A stretch of 64,000 nucleotides of DNA, taken from Akkermansia muciniphila. GTDB taxonomy: Bacteria > Verrucomicrobiota > Verrucomicrobiia > Verrucomicrobiales > Akkermansiaceae. Where the stretch lies: positions 10,797 to 74,796 of the forward strand of contig CAMCCX010000002.1 of the NCBI GenBank assembly GCA_945873305.1. The letters run 5' to 3'. The notes beneath the pieces are model-generated. The model was not told the origin of the DNA. It saw only the letters and a program-made list of their open reading frames with translations, and did not search any database. Shown here piece after piece: positions 19,446-40,956 of the stretch. Made by a program: the position numbers and the translations under genes. Position 1 is the first letter of the stretch, and each line of letters starts with the position of its first letter.

Positions 19446-19522
19446 GGCCGTATGGTGGGGTATTTCGGGGAGGCCTGTCCACCCCAAGCCGAGGTGATCG
19501 GGAGCGCTGCAAATCAGGCCTC

Positions 19523-19893
19523 TTACACCTGCTTGTCCACGTCCTCTCGCAGGTTTTCGATGATGAAGTCCTGACTGTCCGGGGTGTTCTCGCCCATGTA
19601 GAAGGCGAGCAGTTCCTTCACGCCTTTGCCTTCCTGATACTCGACATGGTCGAGGCGCATGTCCGGGCCGATCATGAAGCTGAACTCGTCGGGCGAGATT
19701 TCTCCGAGGCCCTTGAAGCGGGTGATCTCGGCGGCCTTGCCGAGTTTCGCCAAGGCTTTCTGGCGCTCGTTGTCGTCGTAACAGTAGATGGTTTCCTTCT
19801 TATTGCGGACGCGGAAGAGTGGGGTTTGGAGAATGTAGAGATGTCCGTCGCGGATCATTTCCGGGAAGAACTGGAGGAAGAAGCTGAGCAATA
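19523..19893 (-). pseudogene. Orphan 3' fragment (copy A) of the parE-like gene
   Basis: Collinear, no indels, with 33953-34320 (about 21 mismatches in ~368 bp by hand count); no 5' part; ends KQV*. Confidence 0.95.
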
Positions 19894-19894
19894 C

Positions 19895-20011
19895 CACACG
19901 GCCTACGTCTCGAAAATTGCCGGTAGTCTGCCGAAGGACTGCATCCTCATCGCCAACCTATCCGGCCGCAGCGACAAGGACGTGGAACAAGCGTCGAAAT
20001 ACCTGCTCTAA
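19895..20011 (+). pseudogene. trpB: Orphan 3' fragment of tryptophan synthase beta chain
   Basis: [38 protein letters not shown] matches the TrpB C-terminal signature (..VNLSGRGDKD..); begins where parE homology ends. Confidence 0.8.
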
Positions 20012-20064
20012 TCCGCACCACTCGTTCACTGATCACGCTCCGGACTGCTGGTCCAATCGAAACA

Positions 20065-20268
20065 TCAGTCGGATTTACCGGTCTTCTTCGGCTTCTTCGC
20101 TGCGGTCTTCTTGAGATCCGCCTTGAGGGACTTCACTTGTTTCTTCGCCTGGCTCGCGGTTTTACGGGCCGCTTTAACCGCCTCCTTGGCTTGCTTGAAA
20201 TCGGCTCTCGCCGCCTGCAACTGGGTTTGTTTTTCGTCAGCGGGTTGTTTTTCTGATAAATCATTCAT
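20065..20268 (-). CDS. Small Lys/Ala-rich basic protein
   Basis: 67 aa, helical K/A-rich body with a KKTAAKKPKK tail. Confidence 0.6.
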   Translation of the reverse strand: MNDLSEKQPADEKQTQLQAARADFKQAKEAVKAARKTASQAKKQVKSLKADLKKTAAKKPKKTGKSD

Positions 20269-20558
20269 AAGTTTGGTGGGTTAGGGTCCGCTTGATCCGA
20301 AATTGGCAGGACAAGCAAAACATTGCGACAGCATGGTCACTTACGGATGAGATCCCAGACAATCTCTCAATTGTGACGATTCTCCGCACGAGGAAGATCG
20401 ATCCGAAAAGCGGAATCTTTACAAAATGGCGAAAAATGAGCTGTGCCATGTTTCCGTGTGACAAGTCAGCCACACGTGTGATTTTTTTGTAACAGGATTT
20501 CCGTTGGGAGAAGCCAGCCGATTCATAGCTTGCCGATGCCTCTCAAACATCGGCAAAC

Positions 20559-23500
20559 ATGAAAACACGAACACTTCAATTCCAGATCGCGGCCCTCTGC
20601 GTGGGCGGACTCGCGGCATCCACCCTGCTCGCACAAGCGGACATCATCATCACCGAGGTCAACTCGAACTCCGCTGGAGGCGACTTCTTCGAACTCCACA
20701 ACACCGGAGCCTCCGCCGTGGATCTCACCGGTTGGAAATGGGACGATGACTCCCTGACTCCCTCATCCGGCGCCACCTTCGGCAGCATCTCCATCCCCGC
20801 AGGCGGCGTGCTCGTGGTGAGCAATGGAACTACCGGAACCGAGGCCGCGTTCAAGACCGCTTGGAATCTCACCGGCGATGTCAGTGTGGTAGCCACCGGC
20901 GGACCCGGACTGGGCGGCAACGACGCCGTGATCCTTTTCGATACGGCTAACAACGTCATCGCGTCATTCAACTACAAGAGCGCCGCGTTCACCGCCAATT
21001 CCATCACGCTGCAACCCTTCGCGCGCCCCGGCGCAGCCGCCCCGCTCGGCGGCCATGCCGGCCCCTCCGCCGGTTCCGCCTTCGGGGATGCGGTTTCCGC
21101 CGTGTGGGACGGAGTTTCCAACGCCAGCCCGGTGTATGTCCCGGCAGCCGTCGGAAGCCTCAATGTCCGTTCGCAATCCGGATCCATCACGAGCATCGGC
21201 TCTCCCGGCACTAACGGACTTTTCCCGGTCGCCTACGTTCCTCCGACTCCCGCCGTCATCACTCCGGATGCCATGGTGGTTCCGGCGGGTGAACTCCGCA
21301 TGCGGAAAATCTCATCGCTGAGCCTCTTCGGATCGGAGATCTCTTCCTACGATGCGGCCAGCAAACGGATGTTCGTCACGTCCAACTTCGGCCTCCAGAT
21401 CGTGGACGCGAGCAATCCCGCCTCGCCGCAGTTGCTCAGCATCGTGGATTTCAAAACTCCAGCGATCGGCCTCAACAGCAACGACGTCACCAGCGTGGAC
21501 GTCCACAACGGCAAGGTCGCCGTCGCCGTACCTAACACCACCAAGGACCTTCCTGGCCACGTTGTTTTCCTCAATGCCGCCGATGGTTCATTCATCAGCA
21601 AGGTGCAGGTCGGCGTGCTTCCCGACAGCCTCACCTTCACCCCGGACGGCACCAAGGTGCTCACCGCCGACGAAGGCGAAATGCTTACAGGAGGCACCGA
21701 CCCGGCCCCCGGCTCGGTGACCATCATCGATGTATCCAACATCGACACTCCCGTCGCCACTGTCGTCGGTTTCACCTCATTCGATGCCAGCGCCGCCGCA
21801 CTGAAAGCCGCGGGTGTCCGCATTTTCGAAGCCAGCCCGGGTGTGCTCAAGGCACCCTCCGTGGACTTCGAGCCCGAATACGTCGCGATTTCAGCGGATG
21901 GCACCAAGGCCATGGTCACCCTGCAGGAAGCCAATGCGGTCGCCCTGTTGGACATCGCCTCCGCCACCTTCACCTCCATCGTTCCTCTAGGAGAAAAAGA
22001 CTATAGCACTCTGCTAGCGGACTTCAGCGATGCTGACGGCGGAGCCAACCTTGCCACCGGCAGGCCGGTCTTCGGTCTCTACATGCCGGACGCCATCACC
22101 TCCTTCAGCGCGGGTGGAAACACCTACTACATCACCGCCAACGAAGGGGATGACAGAAACGACTTCCTCACGGAAACCACCACCGTCTCCAACGCCGGCT
22201 ACGTTCTGGATCCCACCGCGTTTCCAGCCGCCGCCGCTCTCAAGGCCAACACCAGCTTGGGCAAGCTCGTCGTTTCCAACGCACCAGGCCTGCGCGGTGA
22301 TACCGATGGAGACGGCGACATCGACCGGATCCTCTCCTACGGCGGACGCTCGATCTCGATCCTCGATTCCACAGGAACACGCATCTATGACAGCGGTGAT
22401 CTCCTCGATCAGAAACTGACCGCCATCGGCACGCCCTTCTTCGATGACGGTCGCAGCGATGCGAAGAGCATCGAGCCCGAAGGCGTGACCACCGGCGAGA
22501 TCGACGGCCGCACCTATGCTTTCGTCACCCTCGAACGCGCCCGCAGCGTGGCCGCCTTCGACGTCACCAATCCCGCCGCCGTCACCTACGCCGGACTGGC
22601 AGCCAACGCCACCGACGCAAATCCGGAAGGCATCACCTTCATCTCCAAAGCCGACTCACCTAACGGCCAACCGATGATCGCGGTGACCAATGAAACGAGC
22701 AACACGCTCACCTTCTATTCGGTAGCCCCCTACACGCTGCAAGTCCTCCACCTCGCCGACGCCGAGGCCGGCCTGCTAGCCTCGCAGACCGCGCCGAATC
22801 TCGCCGCTCTGGTGGACGCCTTCGACGGAAACTATCAGAACACGCTGATTCTCGCCGGTGGTGACAACTTCATCCCGAGCCCCTTCCTGAACGCAGGAAC
22901 AGACCCGGCGCTCAATGCGGTTCCTTCCATCGGAAAAACCGCCTTCGCCCGCCCGGACATCGCCATTCACAACGAAATCGGCGTGGAAGCGTCCGCCATC
23001 GGCAATCACGAGTGGGACCTCGGCACCGCCGTCTTCACCGACGCCATCCGCCCGGACGCCCCGTGGATCGGAGCGCAGTTCCCCCACATCTCGCTGAACC
23101 TCGACTACTCCGCGGACAGCGCCGCCAACGGCCGCTACGTGGATGTCCCGCTCAACGGAACCACCAGTCTGGTGCCCGAGTCCTCGGTGAACAAAAGCAA
23201 ACTCGTGCCCACCGCTGTCATCACCAAGGGCGGCCAGAAAATCGGCCTTGTCGGCGTGACCACCCAGCTCATCGAAACCATTTCCTCGCCGAGCGGAACC
23301 GAAATCAAAGGTTTCCCCACCGGAGCGGGACCGAACGGCGAGATGGATGACATGGACCTGCTCGCCTCTCAGATCCAGCCCTACATCAACGAACTCGCCG
23401 CGGAAGGTGTGAACAAAATCGTGCTGATGGCCCACCTCCAGCAGATCGCCAACGAGCAGCTGCTCGCCACCAAGCTCAGCGGAGTGGACATCATCCTCGC

Positions 23501-25085
23501 CGCCGGATCGAACACCCGCCTTGGCGATGTGGATGACGTGGCTGTCGCCTTCGCCGGACATTCCGCCGATTTCGCGAACACCTATCCGCTCGTCACCGCC
23601 GGCACCGACGGCAAGCCGACTCTCATCGTCAACACCGACAACGAGTTCACCTATCTGGGCCGGCTCGTCGTGGACTTCGACGCCTTCGGCCAGATCATCA
23701 CTCCGGAGCTGACAGACCGCGTTGCTGAAAACGGAGCCTACGCCTCCACCGCCGCCAACGTCGCCGCCGCATGGGGCGTGTCCGAAGCCAGCCTCCCCAC
23801 CACGGCATTCGCCGCAGGCACCAAGGGAGCGAAGGTCAAGGCCATCACCGATGCCGTGCAAGGCGTCATCAGCCTCAAGGACGGCACCATTTACGGCATC
23901 ACCAACGTCTATCTGGAAGGCGAGCGCTCGTTCGTCCGCAGCGAGGAAACCAACCTTGGTGACATCACCGCGGATGCGAATTCGAACGCCCTCCGCGCGA
24001 TCATCGGCGGCACCGCCCCCATCGTTTCCTTCAAGAACGGCGGTGGCATCCGCGCCCAGATCGGCGCGGTTTCCAGTGCCGGTGGCAGCGCCGTGAAACT
24101 CCCGCCGCCAGCCAATCCCGCCGTCGGCAAGCCTCTCGGCGGAGTCTCCCAGCTCGATATCGAAAACGCACTGCGCTTCAACAACAAGCTCATCGCCTTC
24201 GACACCACGCCCGCAGGACTCAAGGCATTGCTCGAACACGGCGTCGCGTCGTGGCCGAACCAAGGCCGCTTCCCGCAGATCGGTGGTGTCGCCTTCGCCT
24301 GGGACTCGTCGCTTCCCGCCAACAGCCGCGTCCTCACCATCTCGCTCATCGGCGAGGACGGTCTGCCATCCGCCGCGATCTATCAAAACGGGGCCGTGGT
24401 TTCCAACGCACCGGCCACGATCAAGGTGGTGACGCTGAATTTCCTCGCCAACAACGGCGACGGCTATCCAGTGAAGGCCAACGGCGAGAACTTTCGTTAT
24501 ATTCTAGCGGACAACACGCTCGGACCGGCGCTTGACGAAAGCACTGACTTCACCGCCGCCCCGCAACTCCCGGTCAACGCCGTGGGTGAACAAGCGACGC
24601 TCGCCGCCTACTTCAGCTCGAAGCACCCGACGGCCGGCACCGCCTACAACACCGTCGACACCGCCGCCGCGCTGGACCTCCGCATCCAGGGCACGGCTGT
24701 CCGCTCGGACACGGTCCTGCCCTACACCGGCGCGCAGGCATGGACGCTCAATGCGTTCTCGCCCGGCATGCTCGCCATCGGTCGCAGCCCGAGCCTGATG
24801 CTCACCCAGCCGGACCTCGCTTCGGCCGTGGGGGCGACGCGCACGGCGGGACAAGCCGACGTGACCTCGAACCCCTCCGCCTTCAGCCTCTACACCGCCG
24901 GTTCCATCCAGGACCTGCGCGGCACCGGGAACCTGCTCGTTCAGGCCGAGGGAGAAAACGTGACACTGAGCCTGCCGGTTCAGAAGTCCTCCAATCTCGG
25001 GGAATGGGAATCCGCCGGCCAACTCGACATCACGTTCCCGAAGACCGAGGACAAGGAATTCTATCGCCTCGCTCTCCCCCAGTGA
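20559..25085 (+). CDS. Secreted multidomain phosphatase: lamin-tail domain + choice-of-anchor I propeller + 5'-nucleotidase/metallophosphoesterase + C-terminal domain
   Basis: Signal peptide; IIITEVNS...FFELHN...DLTGWK (LTD); EPEYVAIS, ITANEGDDR, SIEPEGV (choice-of-anchor I); LQVLHLAD, GGDNFIP, IGNHEWD, RSEETNLG, KNGGGIRA, GRFPQIGG (5'-nucleotidase). Confidence 0.85.
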   Translation: MKTRTLQFQIAALCVGGLAASTLLAQADIIITEVNSNSAGGDFFELHNTGASAVDLTGWKWDDDSLTPSSGATFGSISIPAGGVLVVSNGTTGTEAAFKTAWNLTGDVSVVATGGPGLGGNDAVILFDTANNVIASFNYKSAAFTANSITLQPFARPGAAAPLGGHAGPSAGSAFGDAVSAVWDGVSNASPVYVPAAVGSLNVRSQSGSITSIGSPGTNGLFPVAYVPPTPAVITPDAMVVPAGELRMRKISSLSLFGSEISSYDAASKRMFVTSNFGLQIVDASNPASPQLLSIVDFKTPAIGLNSNDVTSVDVHNGKVAVAVPNTTKDLPGHVVFLNAADGSFISKVQVGVLPDSLTFTPDGTKVLTADEGEMLTGGTDPAPGSVTIIDVSNIDTPVATVVGFTSFDASAAALKAAGVRIFEASPGVLKAPSVDFEPEYVAISADGTKAMVTLQEANAVALLDIASATFTSIVPLGEKDYSTLLADFSDADGGANLATGRPVFGLYMPDAITSFSAGGNTYYITANEGDDRNDFLTETTTVSNAGYVLDPTAFPAAAALKANTSLGKLVVSNAPGLRGDTDGDGDIDRILSYGGRSISILDSTGTRIYDSGDLLDQKLTAIGTPFFDDGRSDAKSIEPEGVTTGEIDGRTYAFVTLERARSVAAFDVTNPAAVTYAGLAANATDANPEGITFISKADSPNGQPMIAVTNETSNTLTFYSVAPYTLQVLHLADAEAGLLASQTAPNLAALVDAFDGNYQNTLILAGGDNFIPSPFLNAGTDPALNAVPSIGKTAFARPDIAIHNEIGVEASAIGNHEWDLGTAVFTDAIRPDAPWIGAQFPHISLNLDYSADSAANGRYVDVPLNGTTSLVPESSVNKSKLVPTAVITKGGQKIGLVGVTTQLIETISSPSGTEIKGFPTGAGPNGEMDDMDLLASQIQPYINELAAEGVNKIVLMAHLQQIANEQLLATKLSGVDIILAAGSNTRLGDVDDVAVAFAGHSADFANTYPLVTAGTDGKPTLIVNTDNEFTYLGRLVVDFDAFGQIITPELTDRVAENGAYASTAANVAAAWGVSEASLPTTAFAAGTKGAKVKAITDAVQGVISLKDGTIYGITNVYLEGERSFVRSEETNLGDITADANSNALRAIIGGTAPIVSFKNGGGIRAQIGAVSSAGGSAVKLPPPANPAVGKPLGGVSQLDIENALRFNNKLIAFDTTPAGLKALLEHGVASWPNQGRFPQIGGVAFAWDSSLPANSRVLTISLIGEDGLPSAAIYQNGAVVSNAPATIKVVTLNFLANNGDGYPVKANGENFRYILADNTLGPALDESTDFTAAPQLPVNAVGEQATLAAYFSSKHPTAGTAYNTVDTAAALDLRIQGTAVRSDTVLPYTGAQAWTLNAFSPGMLAIGRSPSLMLTQPDLASAVGATRTAGQADVTSNPSAFSLYTAGSIQDLRGTGNLLVQAEGENVTLSLPVQKSSNLGEWESAGQLDITFPKTEDKEFYRLALPQ

Positions 25086-25113
25086 TCGCCTGACACCGCC
25101 TCACTTACGCCTT

Positions 25114-25150
25114 AAACCCCGTCCGGTCCGTCCGGGCGGGGTTTTATTTT
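25114..25150 (+). terminator. Rho-independent terminator
   Basis: AAACCCCGTCCGG-TCCGT-CCGGGCGGGGTTT followed by a T-rich run. Confidence 0.8.
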
Positions 25151-25709
25151 TGTCGGGGTCCGGGAATTGTGACGAAATCAACCCAGAAAACAATTGCGTC
25201 GGTTGAAGGGGAATTCTGTTGGCTGTCACTGGATAAGAAAACCCCAAAGAGCTTGATGAATGGCTAATCCTTACCAACCCGATGTGGTTTAACGGGATTT
25301 CTCATGCCATCTCGACCTAAGGCATCCAATGGCACACGCACTCACAAGAATCGTGCAGCCAACCAGACTGACTGCCCCGATCAGGGCGCAGACATTTTTG
25401 ATAATTTCAAACATTTTACTCAGACTTATGGATTTAACTGGCAGTTGATGCGATAATGGAGCGATTCCGAATCATTTGCGCGACGATAATCATCATCCAT
25501 GGAATCATGGGAAAATGTCGCGAGCAAACTTTCGAAATAAAAACTACCGACTCACGATCCAGCACACTATGCAAAATCGGAACATCTCCTCCGGGTTGGA
25601 AGTCCGTATTTGATTCTGTCGGCAGACTCCGTATCCCGCGTGCCAGCAAGACGCCCTTATGCGACATCCTTCAGAAACACACCCCCCTGAGAAGCCATAC
25701 GAACCAGTC

Positions 25710-26666
25710 ATGAGCGGCGTTGTTCGGCGCGAGTCATTCGAGGATCTGGCGGGCTGCATGAAGGATTATTTCCAAATCGATGCCGTCCAGTTGGAGTCGG
25801 GAGACTTTCAAGGGCAAGTCGACTTCATCGCCACGAAGTGTTTACTGCTCTACCGCGAGAATTATCCACTTCGCACCCACCTAGAGGGCGAGTTGCTAGG
25901 AAACCGATTTGGATTTTCAATACCACTTCTCACCGCCGAGGCGAGGTTTTTAGGCGAAATAGTCGATGACAACAGGATCTCGTCGAGCATTACAGGAGAA
26001 TCCTTTGATCACATGATGGAGAGCGGCTATCAGCAGATGATACTCCTGATAGATTATGCCAAATTGCTGCAAATGGCCGAGCATATATCTCTGCCGGAGG
26101 CGTCCCTCAAGGCTCTCTTGCTGGGCAGGAGAAAAAAAACCCTTCAATCGAACCACCATGACATCCAGAGCATCCGGGAGATATTCGTTCCGATGCTGAA
26201 TGCCGCACGCCAGGGCAATCTGAACATCAGCGCGGATCAGTTTGAGAAGGTGATTTTTGACTCCATTCTGCCGGTGCTCGACGGGAGTGAACACGATTTG
26301 GACCGGGGCCCCGCAGCCATCACGGTGCACCGCGCATTGGAATTGGCTCGCAGCATCACCGGACCCGTTTGCATCTCCGACCTCTGCATGGTGCTCAACG
26401 TCAACCCCAGGACTCTCCATAAAGCCTTCATCAAGATCATGGGAATGCCTCCATACCAATTTTTTCAAAAGCGCAGACTGAGCCAAGCTTACCAGATGTT
26501 GCTGAATACCGATCCGAGGGAATTCCACGTCACCGACATCGCTATGCGACTAGGGTTCTCTGAGCTCGGCAGATTTTCCGTGCAATATCGCGGATTGTTT
26601 GGCGAGAGCCCTTCAGAAACCCTCCGCCGTTTCCGGAAGTGCACTGTCGTCGTGCCCAGTTTCTGA
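25710..26666 (+). CDS. AraC-family transcriptional regulator (EutR-like)
   Basis: C-terminal double HTH (RTLHKAF...GMPPYQF; VTDIAMRLGFSELGRFSVQYRGLFGESPSETLR); visibly lower GC than flanks. Confidence 0.9.
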   Translation: MSGVVRRESFEDLAGCMKDYFQIDAVQLESGDFQGQVDFIATKCLLLYRENYPLRTHLEGELLGNRFGFSIPLLTAEARFLGEIVDDNRISSSITGESFDHMMESGYQQMILLIDYAKLLQMAEHISLPEASLKALLLGRRKKTLQSNHHDIQSIREIFVPMLNAARQGNLNISADQFEKVIFDSILPVLDGSEHDLDRGPAAITVHRALELARSITGPVCISDLCMVLNVNPRTLHKAFIKIMGMPPYQFFQKRRLSQAYQMLLNTDPREFHVTDIAMRLGFSELGRFSVQYRGLFGESPSETLRRFRKCTVVVPSF

Positions 26667-26788
26667 CCCAGACGAACCGAATTTCGCTTTGCAAGGTTAG
26701 GGACGAGCGAGCGCTCCTATCCATACTTCTCGAACGATCTTACCCTTACCACCACCATTTCAGCCCCCCGGCATCTCCTGCTAGAAAC

Positions 26789-27187
26789 ATGCACCGTCCG
26801 CGATCAATTAACCTAATTTACCGATTTCGCTTCGCCGCCGTAATGTGGTGTGCGCGATTTATCCTTCTATCTGTAGCCATTGTCCTCATGCTGGGAGGAC
26901 TCTGCGTTTATGATCCATATCTAATATACGTCGGTGCCGGAGCGGGAATTTCGGGTGGTTTTATGGCAATTCTCCAATGGATGGTCGCGAGCAAGGCGAG
27001 ATGCCCGCTCTGTCACACACCCATACTTGCCGACAAAGCCTGTTCCCGACACCGCCAAGCAAAAAACGCATTCGGCAGCCACCGCACCCGCGTGGCTCTG
27101 GCCATTATTTTCAAAAATCAGTTTTACTGCCCCTATTGCAACGAACCTACGCTGCTTCGACCGCGAAACTCCGTCAATCGAGCATGA
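26789..27187 (+). CDS. Membrane protein with C-terminal zinc ribbon
   Basis: Two hydrophobic helices, then CPLCH...CPYC. Confidence 0.65.
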   Translation: MHRPRSINLIYRFRFAAVMWCARFILLSVAIVLMLGGLCVYDPYLIYVGAGAGISGGFMAILQWMVASKARCPLCHTPILADKACSRHRQAKNAFGSHRTRVALAIIFKNQFYCPYCNEPTLLRPRNSVNRA

Positions 27188-27461
27188 AACCGCAGGGCAT
27201 CTACATTAGTAATGAATGAATGCGAGGAATTTGCTTTTGGGATGATGGCCCCTGAGAATGTTCATGTGGGGACCGAAGGACGGGGAAAAAGGGGGGTGCG
27301 GGGGAAAAGGGAACGGAAGAGGTGTTTCGGTGTGCCAGTGGGCGGCTTTTCAGTTAGAAAAATCCAAGTCCACGCCGGTAATCGGCTGATTCGGAGGATT
27401 TCACAGCGTTATTCCTTTGTCGCGAGCGTAGCTTTCCGTATCGCTTTACCAAATTTATTTA

Positions 27462-28916: not shown

Positions 28917-29031
28917 TGAATTGAAATCATGGTTCCGCAAATTGTGACGAAATTGCCCCAAAAACGGTTGCGCCCGTTGAAAGAAATCCCTGTTGGATTG
29001 AATTGCTTACAATCATTCCATCCAGACCATC

Positions 29032-30990
29032 ATGAAAATCGACATTGTGACGGATACCTTCGTTCCTGATGTGAACGGAGTGGCGATGACTTTGGGACGG
29101 CTGACGGACGGCCTGCGCCAACGGGGACACCGGGTGCATGTGATTCACACGGGAGTCTCGGCCAAAACGGGAGAAACCTGCGTCGCCGCCGTCCCGCTTC
29201 CCGGATACAAGGAAGTGCGCGTGGGCCTGCCGAAACCTTTCGAGCTCAAAGCCCGCTGGTTGAAGAGACGCCCGGACGCGATCTACGTCGCCACGGAAAG
29301 CCCGTTAGGAAAGTCCGCGCTCAAGGCAGCCAACGCGCTGGGCATCCCGGTGGCCTCCGGATTCCACACGAACTTCCACCAATACATGGCGCAATACGGC
29401 ATGGGCGGATTCCACCCGATGGCGATGGCCTATCTGAAAAATTTCCATCAGCGCGCGGACTGCACGCTGACGCCCTCGCGGGACATGGTGGAGCGACTCG
29501 GCAACGAGGGCTTCGAAAACGTCCATCTGCTAGGACGCGGCGTGGATACGGACTTGTTCGCCCCCGGGAAGCGTTGTGAATCCCTCCGCGCCCACTGGGG
29601 CGCACGGGCGGCCACACCGGTCGCGGTGATGGTCGGCCGGGTGGCGGTAGAGAAGAACTTCGAGTTGGCGATGAAGACCTTCGAGCAAATGCGCCAGGTC
29701 TTCCCGGACGTGAGGTGCGTGGTGGTCGGCGACGGTCCCTTGCGTGAAAAACTCGCCGTGAAATTCCCATGGGTTTGTTTTGCCGGTGTGCAAACCGGCG
29801 AGGAGCTCGCCAGGCACTATGCCTCGGCGGACGTGCTGGTCTTTCCCAGTGAAACAGAAACCTTCGGCAACGTGCTGTTGGAAGCGATGGCCAGCGGCCT
29901 CGCCACGGTGAGCTTCGACTACGCCGCCTCGGCGCTGCACGTGCGGGCGGGCGAAAACGGATTCAAGTCGGCCAAGGGCGACTCCGCCGGATTCATCCGC
30001 CACGCGGTGGACGCGCTTTCACTGCGGACGGACGACAAGCTGCGTGAAGCCGCCCGCGAAACCGCGGAATCCCTGGGATGGGACCAAGTGGTGGAGGAAT
30101 TCGCGCGCAGGCTCGCGGAGATCTCGGGAACCGCTGAAGATGTCCCCGCACCCCGGCCGAAGAAATCGAAGCGCCCCAAGTTTTCCTGTCGCACGGTCTT
30201 CATCTCGGACATCCACCTCGGCACACCTGATAGCAAAGCGGATGAAGTCGTGGAATTCCTCAAGCACATCAAGTGCCGCAAGCTGGTCCTCAACGGCGAC
30301 ATCATCGACGGCTGGGCGCTGAAACGCGGCGGGCGCTGGACATCGCGCCACAGCCGCGTGATCCGCAAGGTGATTAAGATGACCGAGCAAGACCACACCG
30401 AGGTGATCTACCTGCGCGGGAATCATGATGAGATCCTCGAGCGCTTCCTGCCGATGGCGTTCGGCAGGATCCGATTGACCAAGGAACACATTCACACCAC
30501 GGCGGCGGAAAAACGTTACCTCATCGTGCACGGTGACGGCTTCGACAGCGTCTCCACCAACCACAAGTGGCTCGCCTCGCTCGGGGCGGTGGGCTACGAT
30601 TTCCTGCTGCGCGTGAACCGCTTCTACAACCACTACCGGGCGTGGCGCGGCAAAGAGTATTTCTCCCTCAGTAAGCGAGTGAAGGCCAAGGTCAAGTCCG
30701 CCGTTAGTTTTGTAGACCGCTACGAGGAACTTCTCCAGGAGCTGGCCCGCCACCGGAAATGCGACGGCATCATCTGCGGTCACATCCACACGCCCGAAGA
30801 CAAACAGGTGGGCGCGATCCACTATCTCAACTCGGGCGACTGGGTGGAGAGCCTCACGGCCATCATCGAGCATCACGACGGACGGATGGAACTGGTGCGG
30901 CATGCCGGGTTCATCGAGAGCCTGAAGCGCGACGGACAGTCCGAACCGCGGGCGGAGCAGGCTTCCCTGCAATCCGCTTGCATGATCTAA
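29032..30990 (+). CDS. Fusion: GT4 glycosyltransferase (Agt-like glycolipid synthase) + LpxH/PlcP-like metallophosphoesterase
   Basis: N-half: IVTDTFVPDVNGV, PDAIYVATESPLG, FHTNF, FPSETETFGNVLLEAMASG. C-half: FISDIHLG, NGDIIDGW, GNHDE, VHGDGFD, ICGHIH, YLNSGDWVES. One continuous ORF. Confidence 0.85.
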   Translation: MKIDIVTDTFVPDVNGVAMTLGRLTDGLRQRGHRVHVIHTGVSAKTGETCVAAVPLPGYKEVRVGLPKPFELKARWLKRRPDAIYVATESPLGKSALKAANALGIPVASGFHTNFHQYMAQYGMGGFHPMAMAYLKNFHQRADCTLTPSRDMVERLGNEGFENVHLLGRGVDTDLFAPGKRCESLRAHWGARAATPVAVMVGRVAVEKNFELAMKTFEQMRQVFPDVRCVVVGDGPLREKLAVKFPWVCFAGVQTGEELARHYASADVLVFPSETETFGNVLLEAMASGLATVSFDYAASALHVRAGENGFKSAKGDSAGFIRHAVDALSLRTDDKLREAARETAESLGWDQVVEEFARRLAEISGTAEDVPAPRPKKSKRPKFSCRTVFISDIHLGTPDSKADEVVEFLKHIKCRKLVLNGDIIDGWALKRGGRWTSRHSRVIRKVIKMTEQDHTEVIYLRGNHDEILERFLPMAFGRIRLTKEHIHTTAAEKRYLIVHGDGFDSVSTNHKWLASLGAVGYDFLLRVNRFYNHYRAWRGKEYFSLSKRVKAKVKSAVSFVDRYEELLQELARHRKCDGIICGHIHTPEDKQVGAIHYLNSGDWVESLTAIIEHHDGRMELVRHAGFIESLKRDGQSEPRAEQASLQSACMI

Positions 30991-30997
30991 AATCTTT

Positions 30998-32710
30998 CTA
31001 TTTGAAAAGCACGTCCACCCCCATCGCGGACTTGCGGAGGAACTTGGGCATCGCCGCAGGATCACGCGGACGCAGGGCCCGAAAGACAAATCCGGCCAGA
31101 TAGAGGATGAAAAACCGGTCCACCCAGCGATAGCCGCGCTTGCGCCGCAGCAGAATTCCTGCCGCCATCGCAAGCGTGCGGCGTTTCACGGGAAATGGCT
31201 CGAAGGAAACCTTGATCCGGTAGCGCTGGCGTTTTTCCTTGGGCCAACGCAACTTGTAAGCGGCCTTCCCGGCGCGGATCCGCCCGGCGACGGATTCGTC
31301 AAACGGCAGGAAATAATAGCGGCGCGCCAGCAGGACGAGATGGAAGAAATCGCCCATGTGCTCGATGTCGTCCGCCGGAAGTCCGGCTTCGCGCGCCAGC
31401 GAGATCATCCGCGGGAACAAGGCCGCGGCCGCCTCGCCACCCGACAAGGCGGCTTCCGGATCACTAACAAAAAGCCACATGACCTTGCGCACGCCGTGAT
31501 TGATGAAAAGCGAGTCCCAGTAAACATGCAGCAATGGCGGTATCCGGACGCGCCGGAAAAACAGCTTCTGCCTGGCGAAGTCGCGGATATAGAGAAGCTC
31601 TCGAATCACGGTATCGGCGTGATCGAGAAGCTCCACCGCCGCGAACGCCCGCTCCGGTCCGAGCAGGGCTTCCACCGCTGAATCGGCGGATTTCCCGTGG
31701 CGGAAGACGGTGATGGCGGCCTCCGTGTTCAGCCGGATCCAGATGTCCCGGCCAGCGGATTCCAGATAGGCGCGCCGCCGGAAACGATGCCAGCCACCAG
31801 TCTGGCACCACACCGAAATTCCCACGACGTTTTCCACTTGTGAGAGTTCCCGCGCGAAGCGTTCGCAATCCCAGCCGATGAACGACGGATACTCGCCCGC
31901 GCCCTCATACTCCCGCCGGGCCTGCAGTTCCAACAGCTTGCGCTGCTTCACCCGGAAGAACGCGCGGTTGAGCGGGAGATAGCGGAAAAAATCGCTCTCA
32001 CCGTGTTTCATCGAAACGATTAGATTGGGCGAGTCGAGCCCCTCCAGCGTCCTTTCCAGCGTGCCCCGGTGCCAGATCAAATCGCCGATGCGGTGGGCCC
32101 CCACCGTCCACGTCCGGAAGATCAAATCCTTGCCGCGGCGTTCGAACTCGGGCAGCAGGGCCCGCAACAAGCGGTTTGCCTCGCCGGCATTGCGCAGGTG
32201 GATCCGCGTCCGGATCGGATCCTGCACGTCGTTGCCATCGCTCTCGCCGATGCGCAGGATCAATCCGGCAAGCTGGGGGAAATCACTAAGAATCCCCCGG
32301 ACCAGACCCACATAGTAAGCTTCCAACTCCGCCGGGTTCCCGCCCATGACCAGCGACAAGGCGGGCGTCATCGGCACCACATCGGTCGTTAGATAGACCT
32401 TCAGCCCGAACTCGCCGTGCAGCATGTCGAAGAATCCGGTGAATTTTCCGCGCAGGAAATCAATCCGATCCGCCACCTCCGGTTCGTGCAGCGGATGAGG
32501 AGCGAGGTGCGCCAGATCATCCAACGTAACCGCGTTGTATCCTTGCGCGGAGATCTGCCGCGCGAATTCCCGAAGCTCTTCCCCGATCGCCGCCCAGTCG
32601 TCCGGACTCGCATCGAGCAAGTCCATGAAAGAAATCTTGGACCAGTTGACCCGCATCCGGCCGCAGCCGCGAAAAAACGGGCCGATCGCATCGATGAGGA
32701 AAAGCTCCAT
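30998..32710 (-). CDS. Uncharacterised TIM-barrel-like protein, distantly GH67 alpha-glucuronidase-like
   Basis: Clean ~570-aa ORF convergent with the fusion gene; GH67 resemblance comes from my own motif alignment only. Confidence 0.6.
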   Translation of the reverse strand: MELFLIDAIGPFFRGCGRMRVNWSKISFMDLLDASPDDWAAIGEELREFARQISAQGYNAVTLDDLAHLAPHPLHEPEVADRIDFLRGKFTGFFDMLHGEFGLKVYLTTDVVPMTPALSLVMGGNPAELEAYYVGLVRGILSDFPQLAGLILRIGESDGNDVQDPIRTRIHLRNAGEANRLLRALLPEFERRGKDLIFRTWTVGAHRIGDLIWHRGTLERTLEGLDSPNLIVSMKHGESDFFRYLPLNRAFFRVKQRKLLELQARREYEGAGEYPSFIGWDCERFARELSQVENVVGISVWCQTGGWHRFRRRAYLESAGRDIWIRLNTEAAITVFRHGKSADSAVEALLGPERAFAAVELLDHADTVIRELLYIRDFARQKLFFRRVRIPPLLHVYWDSLFINHGVRKVMWLFVSDPEAALSGGEAAAALFPRMISLAREAGLPADDIEHMGDFFHLVLLARRYYFLPFDESVAGRIRAGKAAYKLRWPKEKRQRYRIKVSFEPFPVKRRTLAMAAGILLRRKRGYRWVDRFFILYLAGFVFRALRPRDPAAMPKFLRKSAMGVDVLFK

Positions 32711-32811
32711 TGCCAAGGACATGGACGATCACCTCGCCGGGCATGAGTGACGAGATATCAATATTGACGGAAACGTCACACCCCGCTGACGCCGTGCGCG
32801 ATAAATTCAAA

Positions 32812-33044
32812 TCACGCGACCGCTTCAATCTGTTTATCCACGTCCTCGCGGAGGTTCTCGATGATGAAATCCTGGCGGTCGGGCGTGTTCTTGCCCATGT
32901 AGAAGGCTAGCAATTCCTTCACTCCTTTGCCCTCTTCATACTCGACGTGGTCGAGGCGCATGTCCGGGCCGATCATGAAGCTGAACTCGTCGGGCGAGAT
33001 TTCTCCGAGGCCCTTGAAGCGGGTGATCTCGGCGGCCTTGCCGA
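32812..33044 (-). pseudogene. Orphan 3' fragment (copy B) of the parE-like gene
   Basis: [20 protein letters not shown]...[10 protein letters not shown]; 32837-33044 is collinear with 33963-34170, about 12 mismatches in ~208 bp by hand count. Confidence 0.95.
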
Positions 33045-33142
33045 AAAGCTTGAGCGCATCAAGGTCTCTCCTTAGGTTTAGGTTGGGTGCCTCATCCGCC
33101 TTTGCAATCGAAGCCCCGACACCCTAGAATCCTCACACCGCC

Positions 33143-33394
33143 ATGACCACCGCAGACCTCCACGCCCATATCTGGATCGATCCCGCCCGCTGCGGTGGCC
33201 GTCCCTGCATCCGCGGACATCGCATCTGGGTCTCCATGGTGCTCGATCTCCTCGCCGACGGCCTCACGCCGCAGGAAATCATCGCTTCCCATTACCCGCA
33301 GATCACCCTGGAAGACATTCACGCCGGCATCGCCTACGGTTCCGCGATGTCCCATGAGCGCTTTGTGTCCGTCGCCTTGGAGCCCGTCGCATGA
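33143..33394 (+). CDS. DUF433 family antitoxin
   Basis: IWIDPARCGGRPCIRGHRIWV..VLDLLADG.T..EI...YP.ITLEDI.A...Y pattern. Confidence 0.9.
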   Translation: MTTADLHAHIWIDPARCGGRPCIRGHRIWVSMVLDLLADGLTPQEIIASHYPQITLEDIHAGIAYGSAMSHERFVSVALEPVA

Positions 33395-33582
33395 AATTGA
33401 AGCTCGATGAAAACCTCGGCCTGCGGGGCCGGGACATGCTCGCAGAAGCCGGGCATGATGTTTGCACCGTGCCGGAGCAGAATCTTTGCTCCGCCACCGA
33501 TGAGCAAGTTGCTGTCCGCTGCCGTTCGGATGAGCGCGGCATCGTCAATTCCCGGGAAATCACCATAAGTTGCTTACAGTAA
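33391..33582 (+). pseudogene. DUF5615 PIN-like toxin, 3'-truncated
   Basis: MKLKLDENL...GHDVCTV...ATDEQV...RGIV, then diverges and stops at 63 aa. The expected T.D.DF segment and C-terminal half are absent. Confidence 0.75.
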
Positions 33583-33611
33583 GCCGAAATGAACGTCATC
33601 CAGCGGCGATC

Positions 33612-33875
33612 CGCACTCACTTTGGATCGAAGTCACACCTACTTTGGGCCTTGCTCGCACCCACTTCGGATCGAAGTCACATCTACTTTGGGCCTTGCTC
33701 ACACTCACTTCGGATCGAGGTCACACCTACTTTGGGCATTGCTCACACCCACTTTGGATCGAAGTTACACCTACTTTGGACCTTGCTCGCACTCACTTCG
33801 GATCGACCTCGCATCTACTTTGGGTCCGACCCGCACGCACTTTGGATACGACCCGCACCTACTTCGGATCGAACT
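33612..33875. repeat. Tandem array of 12 x 22-bp units (6 x 44-bp dimers), iteron-like
   Basis: Units start at 33612, 33656, 33700, 33744, 33788, 33832; dimer e.g. CGCACTCACTTTGGATCGAAGT-CACACCTACTTTGGGCCTTGCT. Confidence 0.95.
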
Positions 33876-33928
33876 CGCGAGGACTTTGATTGAAGGCGGA
33901 CGGGCTTGAGATCGAGCAGACCGCCACT

Positions 33929-35794
33929 TCAGGCGACCGCCACCTGCACTTGCACCTGCTTGTCCACGTCCTCGCGGAGGTTCTCGATGATGAAATCCTG
34001 ACGGTCCGGGGTGTTCTTGCCCATGTAGAAGGCGAGCAACTCCTTGACGCCCTTGCCTTCCTCATACTCGACGTGGTCGAGGCGCATGTCCGGGCCGATC
34101 ATGAAGCTGAACTCGTCGGGCGAGATTTCACCGAGGCCCTTGAAGCGCGTGATCTCGGCGGCCTTGCCGAGTTTCGCCAAGGCTTTCTGGCGCTCGTTGT
34201 CGTCGTAACAGTAGATGGTTTCCTTCTTGTTGCGGACGCGGAAGAGTGGGGTTTGCAGGATGTAGAGATGCCCGTCGCGGATCATTTCCGGGAAAAACTG
34301 GAGGAAGAAGGTGAGCAGTAGCAGCCGGATGTGCATGCCGTCCACGTCGGCATCGGTGGCGATGACGACTTTGTTATAGCGCAGGTATTCGATGCCGTCC
34401 TCGATGTTGAGCGCGGCCTGGAGCAGGGCGAACTCCTCGTTTTCATAAACGATCTTGCGCGGCAAGCTGTAGGTGTTGAGCGGCTTGCCACGGAGCGAGA
34501 AGACCGCCTGCGTCTCCACGTCGCGGCTCTTGGTGATGGAGCCGGAGGCGGAGTCGCCCTCGGTGATGAAGAGGGTGGATTCCTCACGGCGCTTGTGCTT
34601 GCTGTCGTAGCGGACGCGGCAGTCGCGGAGTTTTTTGTTATGGACCTTCGCCTGCTTGGATCGCTCTCTAGCGAGTTTTTGGATACCCTTGAGGTCCTTG
34701 CGCTCGCGCTCGGCGGAAAGGATGCGCTTCTGGATCGCCTCGGCGACCTGCGGGTGCTTGTGCAGGTAGTTGTCGAGGTTGGTCTTGAGGAAATTCCCGA
34801 TGAAGGTGCGCAGCGACTCGCCGCCCGGCTCGATGGTGGCGGAGCCGAGCTTGGTCTTGGTCTGCGACTCGAACACCGGCTCGATGATGCGCACGCAGAC
34901 GGCGGCCTCGATGCCGGCGCGGATGTCGGACGGCTCGTATTGTTTCTTGTAGAATCCGCGGATGACCTGGACCAACGCCTCGCGGAACGCGGCGAGGTGG
35001 GTGCCGCCCTGCGAGGTGTTCTGGCCGTTGACGAAAGTATAGTATTCCTCGCCGCTTTCGGGCGTGTGGGTGAAGGCGATCTCGATGTCCTTGCCGACGA
35101 GGTGGATCGGCGGATAGAGCGCCTCGTTTTCCATTTCCTCGCGCAGCAGATCCAGCAGGCCGTCCTTCGAGCGGAACTTCTTGCCGTTGAAATTGATGGT
35201 GAGCGCCGGGTTCAGATAGGAATAGTAGCGGCACATCTTCTCGACGAACTGCTCCTTGTATTTCGCCTTGGCGGGGAAAATCGTGCGGTCGAGATCGAAG
35301 GCGAGGCGGGTGCCGTTCGGCGCCTCGTCGCGCCGCGGGTTCGCCATGTCCACGGTGAGCTGGCCCTTGGAAAACTCCAGCGCCTTGGTCTGGTTGTCCC
35401 GCCAGGACTGGATTTCGAAAAAGTCGGAGAGCGCGTTGACCGCCTTGATACCGACGCCGTTGAGGCCGACGGATTTCTTGAACGCCTCGCTGTCATACTT
35501 CGCGCCGGTGTTGATCTGGGCGGCGCAGTCGAAAAGTTTCCCGAGCGGAATCCCCCGGCCGAAGTCGCGCACTTCCACCCGGCCTTGCTCGTCGATGTCC
35601 ACGCGCACTTCCTTGCCGTGGCCCATGATGTGCTCGTCGATGGAGTTATCCACCGCTTCCTTGAGCAGGATGTAGAGGCCGTCGTCGGGCGAGGAGCCGT
35701 CGCCGAGTTTCCCGATGTACATGCCGGGGCGCATGCGGATGTGTTCGCGCCAGTCGAGGGATTTGATGTCGTCTTCGGTGTAGTCAGCAGCCAT
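33929..35794 (-). CDS. parE: Type IIA topoisomerase B subunit (ParE/GyrB-like, short PVC/Bacteroidota type)
   Basis: [69 protein letters not shown]. Confidence 0.9.
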
Positions 35795-35927
35795 GAGGAA
35801 ATTCGTTTCGGAGTTCCTAAACGGTTGACGGGACGGGTGCAAGGGCGGCGATGCGGTGGAAATCAATCGCCTTGAAAATTCCCGTTGCCAGCGGCGGGGA
35901 CCTCCCCCAGCGTGCGCCCGAAACCTC

Positions 35928-36767: not shown

Positions 36768-36777
36768 GCAAGCGGTT

Positions 36778-40910: not shown

Positions 40911-40956
40911 GGTGCTGGTTCCGTGGGGGGAGGGAAAACGCACCGTCCGCAGCCGA

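Follow-up and report, generated by a model that had tools for sequence, protein, structure and literature searches.

The window, the whole 64,000-nucleotide stretch of DNA analysed here, carries on its minus strand an intact parE-like gene (33929-35797) with the Pfam domains HATPase_c, DNA_gyraseB, Toprim and DNA_gyraseB_C. The product, a type IIA topoisomerase B subunit, has 622 amino acids from Met-45 of a 666-aa open reading frame that reaches 35929; none of the NCBIfam models for GyrB and ParE reaches its cut-off, and the assignment between GyrB and ParE is only "parE-like". Three same-strand copies of the 3' end of this gene were found by repeat search, alignment and BLAST: the intact end, whose stop codon is 33929-33931, and two displaced, 5'-truncated copies downstream of the gene, tail B (32812-33044, minus strand, 233 bp) and tail A (19523-19896, minus strand), the older of the two. 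In the alignment tail A covers 19522-19896, about 371-375 bp, and the part of the intact end that it shares is 33949-34323 (the last ~375 bp). The tails delimit two segments: cassette 1 (33045-33928, 884 bp) between the intact gene and tail B, and a distal cassette (19897-32811, ~12.9 kb) between tails B and A. A first-pass annotation had drawn both boundaries in the right places. Tail A stops 36 bp upstream of the start of a resident SOGP/GH94-like glycoside phosphorylase gene (16071-19487, minus strand; Pfam SOGP_N, SOGP_2nd, Glyco_hydro_94 and SOGP_4th), which lies downstream of the whole array.

The tails differ from the intact gene in the manner of alleles. Tail A is 93.9% identical to the intact end, and tail B 93.5% identical over 32830-33044 (215 bp), its own C-terminus continuing to 32812. 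All 14 differences between the intact end and tail B are synonymous; the 23 differences from tail A comprise 17 synonymous and 6 non-synonymous codons, the latter including a change of Q to a stop. Random substitution would give ~80% non-synonymous changes, and the observed counts were matched in 0 of 2000 simulations. These values uphold the initial reading of three ends in one orientation, ~94% identical and mostly synonymous in their differences. Since nearly all differences are synonymous, the copies appear to have diverged as working alleles rather than in place after duplication. The alignment also confirms three different C-termini, with KQIEAVA before the stop in tail B and KQV in tail A after its Q-to-stop change; in one related contig (L175) tail A is kept as a 125-aa open frame. 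Variants common to tails A and B and absent from the intact copy had been noted earlier, and five were found. The intact allele of the conspecific contigs L081 and L161 has these five variants as well, which makes the intact tail of the window the odd one out. The comparisons support the view that the tails are displaced old gene ends and that each insertion brought a replacement end.

Cassette 1 consists of tandem repeats, a gene pair resembling a toxin-antitoxin (TA) module and a promoter-like site. The repeat array (33612-33888; 22/44-bp units; TRF period 44, 4.8 copies, 86% matches) occupies the parE-proximal end and abuts a truncated gene of the toxin-like family DUF5615. Several units contain the palindrome ACTTCG-GAT-CGAAGT; the motif occurs 6 times here against 0.19 expected and, among 174 loci, only in contigs with cassette 1. 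The DUF5615 gene (33391-33582, plus strand; PF18480, E=3e-9) encodes 63 aa spanning profile positions 1-52 of 110, whereas full-length homologues have 119-121 aa. It overlaps by 4 bp the antitoxin-like DUF433 gene (33143-33394, plus strand, 83 aa; PF04255, E=1e-21), homologues of which, at 81-89% identity, sit in many unrelated contexts. A sigma-70-like promoter, TTGCAA-17-TAGAAT (33101-33130, plus strand), is predicted by a consensus scan as a pattern match only; the scan gave 2 overlapping matches, against 0.4 expected, in the 98 bp between tail B and the start of the pair. As in type II toxin-antitoxin modules, the two genes are small, adjacent and co-oriented, represent a matching pair of families and would have a promoter of their own.

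The same cassette, with identical junctions, has been detected in contigs L081 and L161-L163. Over the five contigs one unit is constant, made up of the final ~50 bp of the intact tail, the whole of cassette 1 and the opening ~90 bp of tail B, while the flanks on both sides vary; the last ~50 bp of the intact gene, with its C-terminus, are constant in all contigs that carry the cassette. An empty site is provided by the sister MAG contig L001, in which parE with a tail-B-type end runs straight into hyp, the glycosyltransferase fusion gene and NT5, the distal-block genes described below. Tail B matches this working end at 96.3% over the common 215 bp, with an identical C-terminus and a near-identical downstream intergenic sequence. 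Cassette 1 is judged recent, as it is missing from L001, where the tail-B-type end is the working end.

Could template switching or replication slippage have made the repeats in place, copying cargo from elsewhere and the gene end a second time, with the tails diverging later by allelic conversion? The two repeats around restriction-modification genes resemble each other more closely than they do the empty site, e.g., 417/423 against 345/370 (PMC2853133), as such copying would give, and later overwriting of tails by recombination is evident at this locus. In the window the relation is the reverse: the intact tail and tail B are 93.5% alike, less than either is to L001 (95.8 and 96.3%, respectively). 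The two also differ in C-terminus and post-stop sequence, where a conversion patch would replace the cassette too, and tail B has exactly the C-terminus and downstream sequence of the cassette-free L001. Copying in place is accordingly considered improbable. The first-pass annotation had proposed that incoming DNA brings its own tail and pushes the old one downstream. The replacement ends and L001 favour this, but its corollary of a separate donor for each tail is weakened by the apparent later overwriting.

The distal cassette begins with a hypothetical gene of 574 aa (hyp; 30998-32722, minus strand), for which Pfam and NCBIfam searches gave no match and which lies directly after parE in L001 at 90% amino acid identity. 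A gene for a GT4 glycosyltransferase/calcineurin-like phosphoesterase fusion (29032-30990, plus strand, 652 aa; Pfam, NCBIfam) is found in L001 at 94.6% amino acid identity. The third gene, NT5 (20559-25085, plus strand), encodes a 1508-aa secreted protein with LTD, choice-of-anchor I and 5'-nucleotidase C-terminal domains (Pfam, NCBIfam). It is convergent with parE, and in L087 its 3' end lies ~60 bp past the parE stop, with neither hyp nor the glycosyltransferase gene. The region upstream of NT5 (19897-20558) abuts the 5' break of tail A, with a junction sequence shared by L084, L162 and L175; this region is 94-96% identical to L175, flanking genes 83-90%.

Within the distal cassette lies a secondary low-GC insert of 3.7 kb (25223-28930; GC 0.51-0.55 against ~0.62 elsewhere) that is absent in L001. 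It contains an AraC-type regulator (25659-26666, plus strand; Pfam, NCBIfam), a 182-aa Zn-ribbon-like open reading frame (26639-27187, plus strand) and an IS4-family DDE transposase (27607-28833, minus strand; Pfam, NCBIfam), the transposase lying inside this insert and away from the tail junctions. Read depth over the insert in run X3 was ~0-2 against 11-21. The insert is flanked by a 67-bp imperfect direct repeat (28931-28996 and 25156-25222) with 50 of 67 positions identical and a local score of 31, against a shuffle maximum of 15 (n=300); the repeat is single copy in L001. Rather than the one cassette that had been described earlier, the 12.9-kb segment is, as far as these comparisons go, composite, the IS4/AraC insert having been added later, and the block itself appears old, since the same junction occurs in a contig only 87.5% identical. 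No TA module was found in the distal 9-kb block. An empty site for it was not found; the more distant relatives examined have SOGP beside other genes.

Arrays of this kind in metagenomes invite the suspicion of strain-chimeric misassembly at a repeated or polymorphic gene end. The window is metagenome-derived, 7 of the 14 closest MAG contigs end at the parE 3' end or within ~1.3 kb past it, and two contigs with alternative joins exist. Every junction, however, recurs in separate assemblies of other samples. The 3.4-kb contig L161 spans hyp, tail B, cassette 1, the intact tail and the parE body; L081 spans parE and the cassette, and L084 and L175 span NT5, tail A and SOGP. The same joints are seen in other species (L001 and L175). 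Logan unitigs of different metagenomes cross the unique junctions, that between cassette and tail B in X1-X3 and that between the NT5 side and tail A in X2. Independent assemblies in this way confirm the junctions, and an artefact is extremely improbable.

Traces of recombination are found in and around the gene end. Between window and L081 there is a patch of 90-95% identity at 34383-33984 between flanks that are ~100% identical; on this alignment, the patch is direct evidence of allelic replacement by homologous recombination inside parE. The two contigs with alternative joins have hybrid tails. In L163, cassette 1 is joined to a tail with a 5' part from B and a 3' part from A, followed by SOGP; in L162, the NT5 upstream region is joined to a tail with a 5' part from A and a 3' part from the intact end, followed by cassette 1. 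These are candidate products of tail-tail recombination, a deletion and a circle or tandem junction, respectively. They could also be short-read assembly chimeras, since both switch tails in a 56-bp stretch, the only one in which all tails agree. A hybrid-tail test on cassette 1, counting mismatches to L001 in the alignment, gave 8 in 162 bp against 0 in 60 bp, a distribution in keeping with a hybrid although the difference is not significant.

The architecture is not confined to this array. In two relatives, L003 and L083, other small two-gene TA-like cassettes lie behind parE tails, so that the displaced tail lengths are 371, 233, 150 (L083) and 71 bp (L003). The same arrangement occurs at a beta-helix gene in L022, with a PIN-toxin cassette and a 146-bp repeat, and at an intergenic site in L007, with a ParE_toxin/Unstab_antitox pair and a 115-bp repeat; the repeat copies in both show mostly synonymous differences. 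By these sequence matches the cassette architecture is not parE-specific. No empty site was found for L003, L083, L022 or L007. Small cassettes mostly carry TA-like modules, plausibly because addiction would counter-select loss by recombination between the repeats. In cassette 1 and L003 addiction cannot act now, as the toxin genes are truncated or fragmented.

Partial copies of a target gene around cargo are also what an integrase might leave. If an integrase, since lost or encoded in another part of the genome, had acted on an att site within the 3' end of parE, the outcome would resemble tRNA-targeting islands or tycheposon satellites, and tandem partial target-gene copies bounding cargo are a hallmark of repeated site-specific integration (tycheposon preprint). 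The window is only 64 kb of the genome, and a recombinase elsewhere in it is possible. The search combined partial Pfam screens with a scan for sequence motifs, the latter over 2.26 Mb of related loci, among them 10-kb flanks from about 96 close relatives. Neither the window nor any of 178 related loci gave a tyrosine or serine recombinase in the motif scan (two spurious matches only), Pfam gave no recombinase among all large open reading frames of 16-36 kb, and two Pfam screens listed no recombinase among the genes downstream of parE. Cassettes of 0.5-1.3 kb are too small for an integrase. The four tails also start at different distances from the stop, where one integrase would yield one length, and thus leave no common att core; in L162 and L163 the apparent crossovers map 150-200 bp before the stop, beyond the 71-bp tail of L003. 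Site-specific integration is therefore very unlikely, as the first-pass annotation had held from the different starts of the tails and the lack of an integrase.

For this architecture, with its empty site, absent integrase motifs, variable tail lengths, recombination mosaic and recurrence at other loci, the reading we consider probable is a series of nested insertions with long target duplication, made and moved by RecA-type homologous recombination without a dedicated recombinase. An incoming segment would start in the last 70-370 bp of the gene, pass the stop codon and carry the cargo. Recombination with the resident gene would give an intact gene ending in incoming DNA, with the old end left past the cargo as a 5'-truncated remnant, and a second event in front of the first would build an array. 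This geometry would be that of a single crossover of a circularised fragment bearing a 3'-terminal gene piece (insertion-duplication), the circle being a presumed intermediate. In E. coli, single crossovers of circular molecules gave duplications of 109-950 bp of the homologous gene end (PMC3240628). A cassette flanked by homologous gene ends on both sides might then spread to relatives via a double crossover in which the gene body and the displaced tail would be the left and right arms, respectively, and tail-tail recombination could delete it or loop it out. The first creation of each cassette would still require an illegitimate joint, and the route of DNA entry is a presumed part of the model.

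The first-pass annotation had favoured homology-facilitated illegitimate recombination (HFIR) of linear DNA via natural transformation, in which donor parE would provide the homologous anchor and the other end of the cargo would be joined illegitimately within the resident tail. Its broader claim of homology-driven, integrase-free entry agrees with the replaced alleles in parE and the tail-B-type end of L001. One-sided homology, the lack of an integrase and the visible import of diverged alleles would also suit HFIR. A ComEC gene lies at 38643-40943, and long target duplications around restriction-modification genes occur mainly in competent species (PMC2853133). Nevertheless the predicted outcome of HFIR is a deletion of recipient DNA adjoining the anchor (PMC3240628), whereas here this DNA is retained and duplicated. 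In the E. coli experiment, circles had entered by a single crossover in 56 of the 60 events that duplicated a gene end (PMC3240628). HFIR would also need an illegitimate joint within the resident last 71-371 bp in at least four independent events. The nearby ComEC gene, mentioned earlier, is not by itself evidence of competence, and the lineage is not known to be competent. HFIR is rather unlikely and fits less well than single-crossover or tail-armed homologous recombination.

A more speculative extension, which we hold only tentatively, is that a gene-end-flanked cassette could be a self-sufficient mobile unit without a recombinase. The displaced tail would be its portable right-hand homology arm, and addiction modules (TA here, restriction-modification earlier) might hop into any genome sharing the conserved gene, loop out as circles and stack into arrays. 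If so, long target duplication would be a property of addiction plus homology and not of DNA cleavage by the cargo. The array bears on how small TA modules and other accessory "islets" get into chromosomes when no mobile-element genes accompany them, a process for which a 2026 survey of TA acquisition (PMC13617665) invokes recombination at core genes on either side. Here an empty site and a recombination mosaic, together with candidate junctions of a deletion and of a circle, come from natural populations, and the parE tails in uncultured freshwater Luteolibacter offer a concrete system for testing the homology-plus-addiction idea. Gene-end remnants are also a simple sequence signature of recombinase-free gene gain in metagenomes, and may be a reason why MAG contigs often break at the parE-like gene.

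Several known systems resemble the array in part. In tandem islands at tRNA genes (tycheposons and others), successive inserts are also bounded by partial target copies, and each new insert displaces the older ones from the intact gene. Those islands have tyrosine recombinases and partial tRNAs of fixed length, unlike the parE array with its variable tails and lack of a recombinase gene in or beside the element, and a site-specific integrative island was rejected on these grounds. An integron cassette array was likewise rejected: the window has no tyrosine recombinase motif, gene tails bound the cassettes, and there are no inverted repeats in 18-36 kb. Orphan rhs-CT/cdiA-CT arrays also show a full-length gene followed by displaced 3' fragments with some conserved upstream coding sequence and their own cargo, and recombination between main gene and orphan rearranges the locus (PMC3967940). 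Their tails are functional polymorphic toxin domains, whereas here the tails all encode one conserved end of a type IIA topoisomerase subunit, the product of the main gene, and the cargo is unrelated, so that an Rhs/CdiA array was rejected too. HFIR shares the one-sided homology for foreign DNA entry and the independence from a recombinase gene, but is expected to delete recipient DNA by the anchor, where the parE locus keeps a duplicated gene end. Campbell-type insertion-duplication gives the same order of intact gene, insert and 5'-truncated copy, with E. coli duplications of 109-950 bp (PMC3240628); that system is a laboratory plasmid, and the parE locus offers only the possible circle-junction contig L162.

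The closest known kind is insertion with long target duplication of restriction-modification gene complexes (Nobusato et al. 2000; Furuta, Abe & Kobayashi 2010, PMC2853133). There, repeats of tens to >400 bp surround complexes that have no mobility genes, and most cases come from competent species. Furuta et al. (2010) defined it by a repeat >30 bp, both copies of which correspond to one copy in an insert-free relative, around an insert <20 kb with restriction and modification genes and no other mobile-element genes. The repeats here measure 233 and 375 bp in the window, 150 bp in L083, 71 bp in L003, 146 bp in L022 and 115 bp in L007. For cassette 1, L001 has a single tail and then hyp. The inserts are 0.9 and 12.9 kb, the sole mobility gene being the IS4 transposase in the later 3.7-kb insert missing from L001. 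The cargo is DUF433/DUF5615 or hyp, GT4-phosphoesterase and NT5, in which Pfam found no restriction-modification domains. Both systems have a small unit with addiction properties, no mobility gene and direct repeats of varying length that align to one empty-site copy, and in two Haemophilus cases the repeat overlaps a gene 3' end (PMC2853133). At parE, in contrast, TA-like modules and a 9-kb metabolic or surface block make up the cargo, the insert enters the coding 3' end of an essential gene and restores it, the events are nested, and the host phylum is Verrucomicrobiota. The parE copies are allelic, with synonymous differences and different C-termini, whereas the restriction-modification repeats are near-identical. 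The mechanism has been unsolved since the 2000 description; its discoverers suggested that double-strand breakage by the restriction enzyme drives insertion (PMC2853133), and PIN, DUF5615 and AbiEii cargo would not supply such breakage. Its architecture at the coding end of an essential gene in another phylum, around cargo for which no DNA-cleaving activity is predicted, points to homology and addiction as the common factors.

The gene with the repeated 3' end encodes a type IIA topoisomerase B subunit of 622 aa (33929-35797, minus strand) with the Pfam domains HATPase_c, DNA_gyraseB, Toprim and DNA_gyraseB_C. All NCBIfam GyrB and ParE models score below cut-off for this protein, and 'parE-like' is therefore the safe name. 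The window comes from a freshwater Luteolibacter-like verrucomicrobium. Judged by the parE-like protein, its nearest relatives are MAGs of Luteolibacter and Akkermansiaceae; of the words sampled from the region, 81% are present in one lake-water run, whose unitigs match with essentially no mismatches. MAGs titled 'Akkermansia muciniphila' or 'Prosthecobacter debontii' (L001, L008, L009, L011, L022, L024 and L027) carry parE-like proteins 64-99% identical to that of the window, and for the closest of them (87-99% identical) these titles look coarse or wrong as taxonomic labels. In 7 of the 14 closest GTDB MAGs (L002, L004, L008, L009, L010, L014 and L018) the contig stops within the parE 3' end or at most about 1.3 kb beyond it, suggesting that many populations are heterogeneous in strain, or carry repeats, at this locus.

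Repeat search, alignment and BLAST all detect two further copies of the parE-like 3' end on the same strand of the window. Tail A (19522-19896, minus strand, 375 bp) matches the intact end at 93.9% identity. Tail B (32830-33044, minus strand, 215 bp) does so at 93.5%, and its own C-terminus reaches 32812. The tail coordinates, identities, C-termini and cassette sizes of the first-pass annotation were all correct. No other dispersed repeat of at least 50 bp occurs across the 64-kb window. The tail differences look allelic, unlike decay. All 14 differences between tail B and the intact end are synonymous; in tail A, 17 codons differ synonymously and 6 non-synonymously (including a Q to stop change two codons before the end), against about 80% non-synonymous changes expected from random substitution. 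The idea that a tail is kept for holding the promoter of the next gene is unsupported, since a crude scan of tails A and B gave no sigma-70-like site in either.

The array is not an assembly artefact, because independent assemblies reproduce each junction. One ENA contig (L161, 97.8% identical) carries the 574-aa gene hyp, tail B, cassette 1 (33045-33928), the intact tail and the parE body, and the conspecific L081 has parE and cassette 1 on one contig. The 5'-nucleotidase-type gene NT5, tail A and SOGP, the resident gene beyond tail A, share a contig in L084 (99.7% identical), and L175, from another species, has them in the same order as the window. Unitigs cross the cassette/tail-B junction in sequencing runs X1-X3 and the NT5-side/tail-A junction in X2.

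Cassette 1 is directly adjoined by tail B. In the parE direction it consists of a spacer of about 40 bp at the parE-proximal end, a 22/44-bp tandem-repeat array (33612-33888), a plus-strand DUF5615 gene of which 52 of 110 profile positions remain, an intact plus-strand DUF433 gene that overlaps the DUF5615 gene by 4 bp, and a promoter-like site (33101-33130). The tandem-repeat array stands where the absent 3' half of the DUF5615 gene would be. Several of its units contain the palindrome ACTTCG-GAT-CGAAGT, a motif confined to cassette 1 among all DNA fetched. DUF433 homologues of 81-89% identity are found in many unrelated neighbourhoods without flank duplication, so that flank duplication reflects a mode of insertion, not the gene family as such. 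None of these neighbourhoods revealed a donor for cassette 1.

Cassette 1 and the new parE end are a recent insertion in front of tail B. In the closest GTDB genome (L001, about 94% nucleotide identity), parE is directly followed by hyp, by GT (a GT4-phosphoesterase fusion) and by NT5, and cassette 1 is absent. The working parE end of L001 is of the tail-B type: it is 96.3% identical to tail B, both have the C-terminus KQIEAVA followed by the stop codon, and the intergenic sequence is near-identical onward into hyp. Tail B is therefore the former working end; the insertion ahead of it brought cassette 1 together with a new end. Tail A is old: L175, only 87.5% identical overall, has the same NT5-upstream/tail-A junction; its tail A is an open tail of 125 aa.

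The distal interval between the two tails (19897-32811) holds three genes, encoding the hypothetical 574-aa protein, the GT4-phosphoesterase fusion and a 1508-aa LTD/choice-of-anchor-I/5'-nucleotidase protein. This 12.9-kb block had been viewed as a single cassette and is in fact composite. It is broken by a low-GC insert of 3.7 kb (25223-28930) with an AraC regulator, a 182-aa Zn-ribbon-like ORF and an IS4-family transposase, and this insert is missing from L001 and nearly so from the run X3 population. It lies between the copies of a 67-bp imperfect direct repeat (25156-25222 and 28931-28996; 50 of 67 positions identical), of which L001 has one copy only. The length of this repeat far exceeds that of a normal transposase target duplication. 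In a further related contig, L087, the NT5 3' end lies about 60 bp past parE, without hyp or GT. The closest SOGP contig, L175 (89% aa), already shows the NT5-tail A-SOGP order. The SOGP neighbourhood differs in the more distant relatives examined: two contigs (83-87% aa identity) have ArsP/DUF1980 upstream of SOGP. None of the SOGP contigs examined has parE directly upstream of SOGP, as an ancestral arrangement would, or an empty site for the distal block. Exact-protein look-up returned no match for SOGP, and short contigs only for hyp.

No sign of a site-specific recombinase was found at the parE array. Pfam detected none in any large ORF of the region, and a scan for tyrosine and serine recombinase motifs across 2.26 Mb (the window plus 178 fetched loci, among them 10-kb flanks of about 96 close relatives) yielded only two matches, both spurious. 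Integrases were absent from the top 25 families listed in a Pfam screen of 135 parE-downstream ORFs in relatives, and from a second screen of 78 such ORFs; these downstream-ORF screens are weak negative evidence. More telling against a recombinase than the motif and Pfam negatives are the variable tail lengths. Displaced parE tails occur in two further lineages, with lengths unlike those in the window. The first (L003) has a 71-bp tail and a cassette of DUF6577 and AbiEii toxin fragments, followed by kdsB. The second (L083) has a 150-bp tail and a cassette in which two small ORFs, 64 and 84 aa long, lie side by side; neither gave a significant Pfam or NCBIfam match, and only their gene organisation and a reading of the sequences suggest a toxin-antitoxin (TA) pair. 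Tail breakpoints of 371, 233, 150 and 71 bp are therefore not the product of one att core. Cassettes of 0.5-1.3 kb also lack room for an integrase.

Insertions of the dif/Xer or Tn7 type leave repeats of 28 bp or 5 bp. Both types are rejected for this locus, where the repeats measure 70-370 bp. Extra parE-tail matches in the related loci L123 and L128, obtained with an nhmmer profile of 93 tails, showed no real similarity on pairwise BLAST and translation and were rejected. An IS200-like (Y1) transposase-like ORF with an HVHLL-type motif in translation stands right after the parE stop of L128 (about 2300-2950). A Y1_Tnp match is also present in the downstream-ORF Pfam screen, the output of which does not give the source ORF.

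The tail-flanked architecture is not specific to parE, as self-comparison of all fetched loci revealed. For example, in a Prosthecobacter-like MAG (L022, 2434-3481) a beta-helix/CBM gene has its final 146 bp duplicated with 89.7% identity, the copies differing in 10 synonymous and 4 non-synonymous codons. They flank an 85-aa ORF and a PIN-domain toxin, and the displaced tail begins 8 bp past the toxin stop. In L007 (11025-11874) a 115-bp intergenic segment is duplicated with 83% identity around a ParE_toxin/Unstab_antitox pair. L007 is a Luteolibacter MAG, in which this pair follows parE at a distance of 9 kb. Synonymous changes also account for most of the differences between the L003 and L083 tails and their own intact copies. 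As side observations, a Flavobacteriaceae MAG (L041, 8367-9245) has a 99-aa ORF, a possible GIY-YIG nuclease from its sequence, between 260-bp direct repeats of 93% identity. Another Luteolibacter relative (L092) has a 154-bp direct repeat, 90.9% identical (5936-6088 and 6736-6886), 0.4-1.4 kb downstream of parE; it encloses small ORFs without Pfam match and is not a parE tail.

Several lines of evidence speak for homologous recombination. Between the window and L081, identity is about 100% from TerC to within parE and, resuming at 33980, across cassette 1, with a difference of 5-10% over 34383-33984. An allelic patch has been swapped within the parE 3' end, and it stops about 50 bp before the stop codon, where homology to other alleles ends. 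Further patches of 88-89% identity to L081 occur amid about 100% identity at 36584-36783 and 37584-37683; mosaic recombination is therefore not restricted to parE.

Five contigs share a constant unit, made up of cassette 1 with some 50 bp from the end of the intact tail on one side and some 90 bp from the start of tail B on the other, and the sequence around this unit varies among them. In L163 cassette 1 is followed by a hybrid tail (5' B-type, 3' A-type) and then SOGP, with the distal block absent. L162 runs from the NT5 upstream region through a hybrid tail (5' A-type, 3' intact-type), cassette 1 and tail B into hyp, the join that an excised circle or a tandem copy should give. Both tail switches fall in the sole 56-bp stretch identical across all tails: recombination would occur there, but a short-read assembler could also join sequences wrongly at that point. 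Logan contigs, being k=31 unitigs, cannot bridge this shared stretch and neither confirm nor refute the two hybrid joins.

Tail A is 92.8% identical between the window and L175. The non-coding DNA upstream is 94-96% identical and the flanking genes just 83-90%, and third-position changes dominate. These values suggest that recombination with working alleles renews the tail remnants. The 94-96% zone, which comprises 19897-20230 and the first half of tail A in the window (1001-1500 in L175), lies upstream of NT5 and may represent a conserved regulatory region or recent recombination.

The integrase-free, homology-anchored model of the first-pass annotation, in which an old tail is pushed downstream, is supported. 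Its specific mechanism, homology-facilitated illegitimate recombination (HFIR), which predicts a deletion, holds up less well, and so does the weight placed on comEC. In an E. coli study built to detect HFIR, with a deletion as predicted product, 56 of 60 events instead duplicated part of the homologous gene end, by 109-950 bp in 14 sequenced clones, which the authors explained by a circular molecule that contained part of the gene end and integrated through a single crossover (PMC3240628). The parE array has exactly the geometry of these single-crossover duplications. An incoming fragment with a stop codon would restore parE and leave a 5'-truncated copy as long as the homologous piece on the incoming DNA, so that tails would vary. 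Once such an array has formed, a linear fragment with the parE 3' region, cassette and displaced tail could enter a naive relative by ordinary double crossover. The left crossover would fall upstream of the tail's start and the right one inside the tail, giving a recipient tail that is donor-type at its 5' end and recipient-type at its 3' end, with the recipient's C-terminus and downstream DNA. Such a product fits tail B of the window and the hybrid tail of L163. Tail B has 8 mismatches to L001 in 162 bp, then 0 in 60 bp (hand count), a lean in this direction that is not significant. First creation of each cassette would still require an illegitimate joint, for which circularisation, HFIR or template switching are candidate sources.

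Among named phenomena, the nearest match is 'insertion with long target duplication', recognised when Helicobacter pylori genomes were compared and afterwards in other bacteria, most of them naturally competent (PMC2853133, PMC3874152). There, restriction-modification (R-M) units are inserted without mobility genes, direct repeats from tens to over 400 bp flank the insert, and the empty site holds a single copy to which both repeats align; the two cases quoted from Haemophilus have a repeat that overlaps a gene's 3' end (PMC2853133, PMC3874152). The mechanism was left open, with DNA breakage by the cargo suggested to be involved (PMC2853133). The parE array has the structural features of this class and falls outside it by cargo alone, which consists here of TA-like modules and a large block without predicted DNA-cleaving function. 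It also differs in its target, an essential gene whose coding end is both hit and restored by the insert, in the nesting of its events, and in its two copies, which are allelic and not near-identical. In a 2013 review, the same group mentions this insertion mode solely for R-M systems (PMC3874152), and a 2026 study of TA acquisition makes no mention of flank duplication (PMC13617665). A limited literature search found no TA cassettes described as long target duplications. Tycheposon-type tRNA islands require a recombinase, integrons require attC sites, and orphan Rhs/CdiA arrays require polymorphic toxin tails; none of these defining features was found in the array. Real and well reproduced, the parE array offers a natural setting in which to test how addiction modules and other islets enter chromosomes without mobile-element genes.
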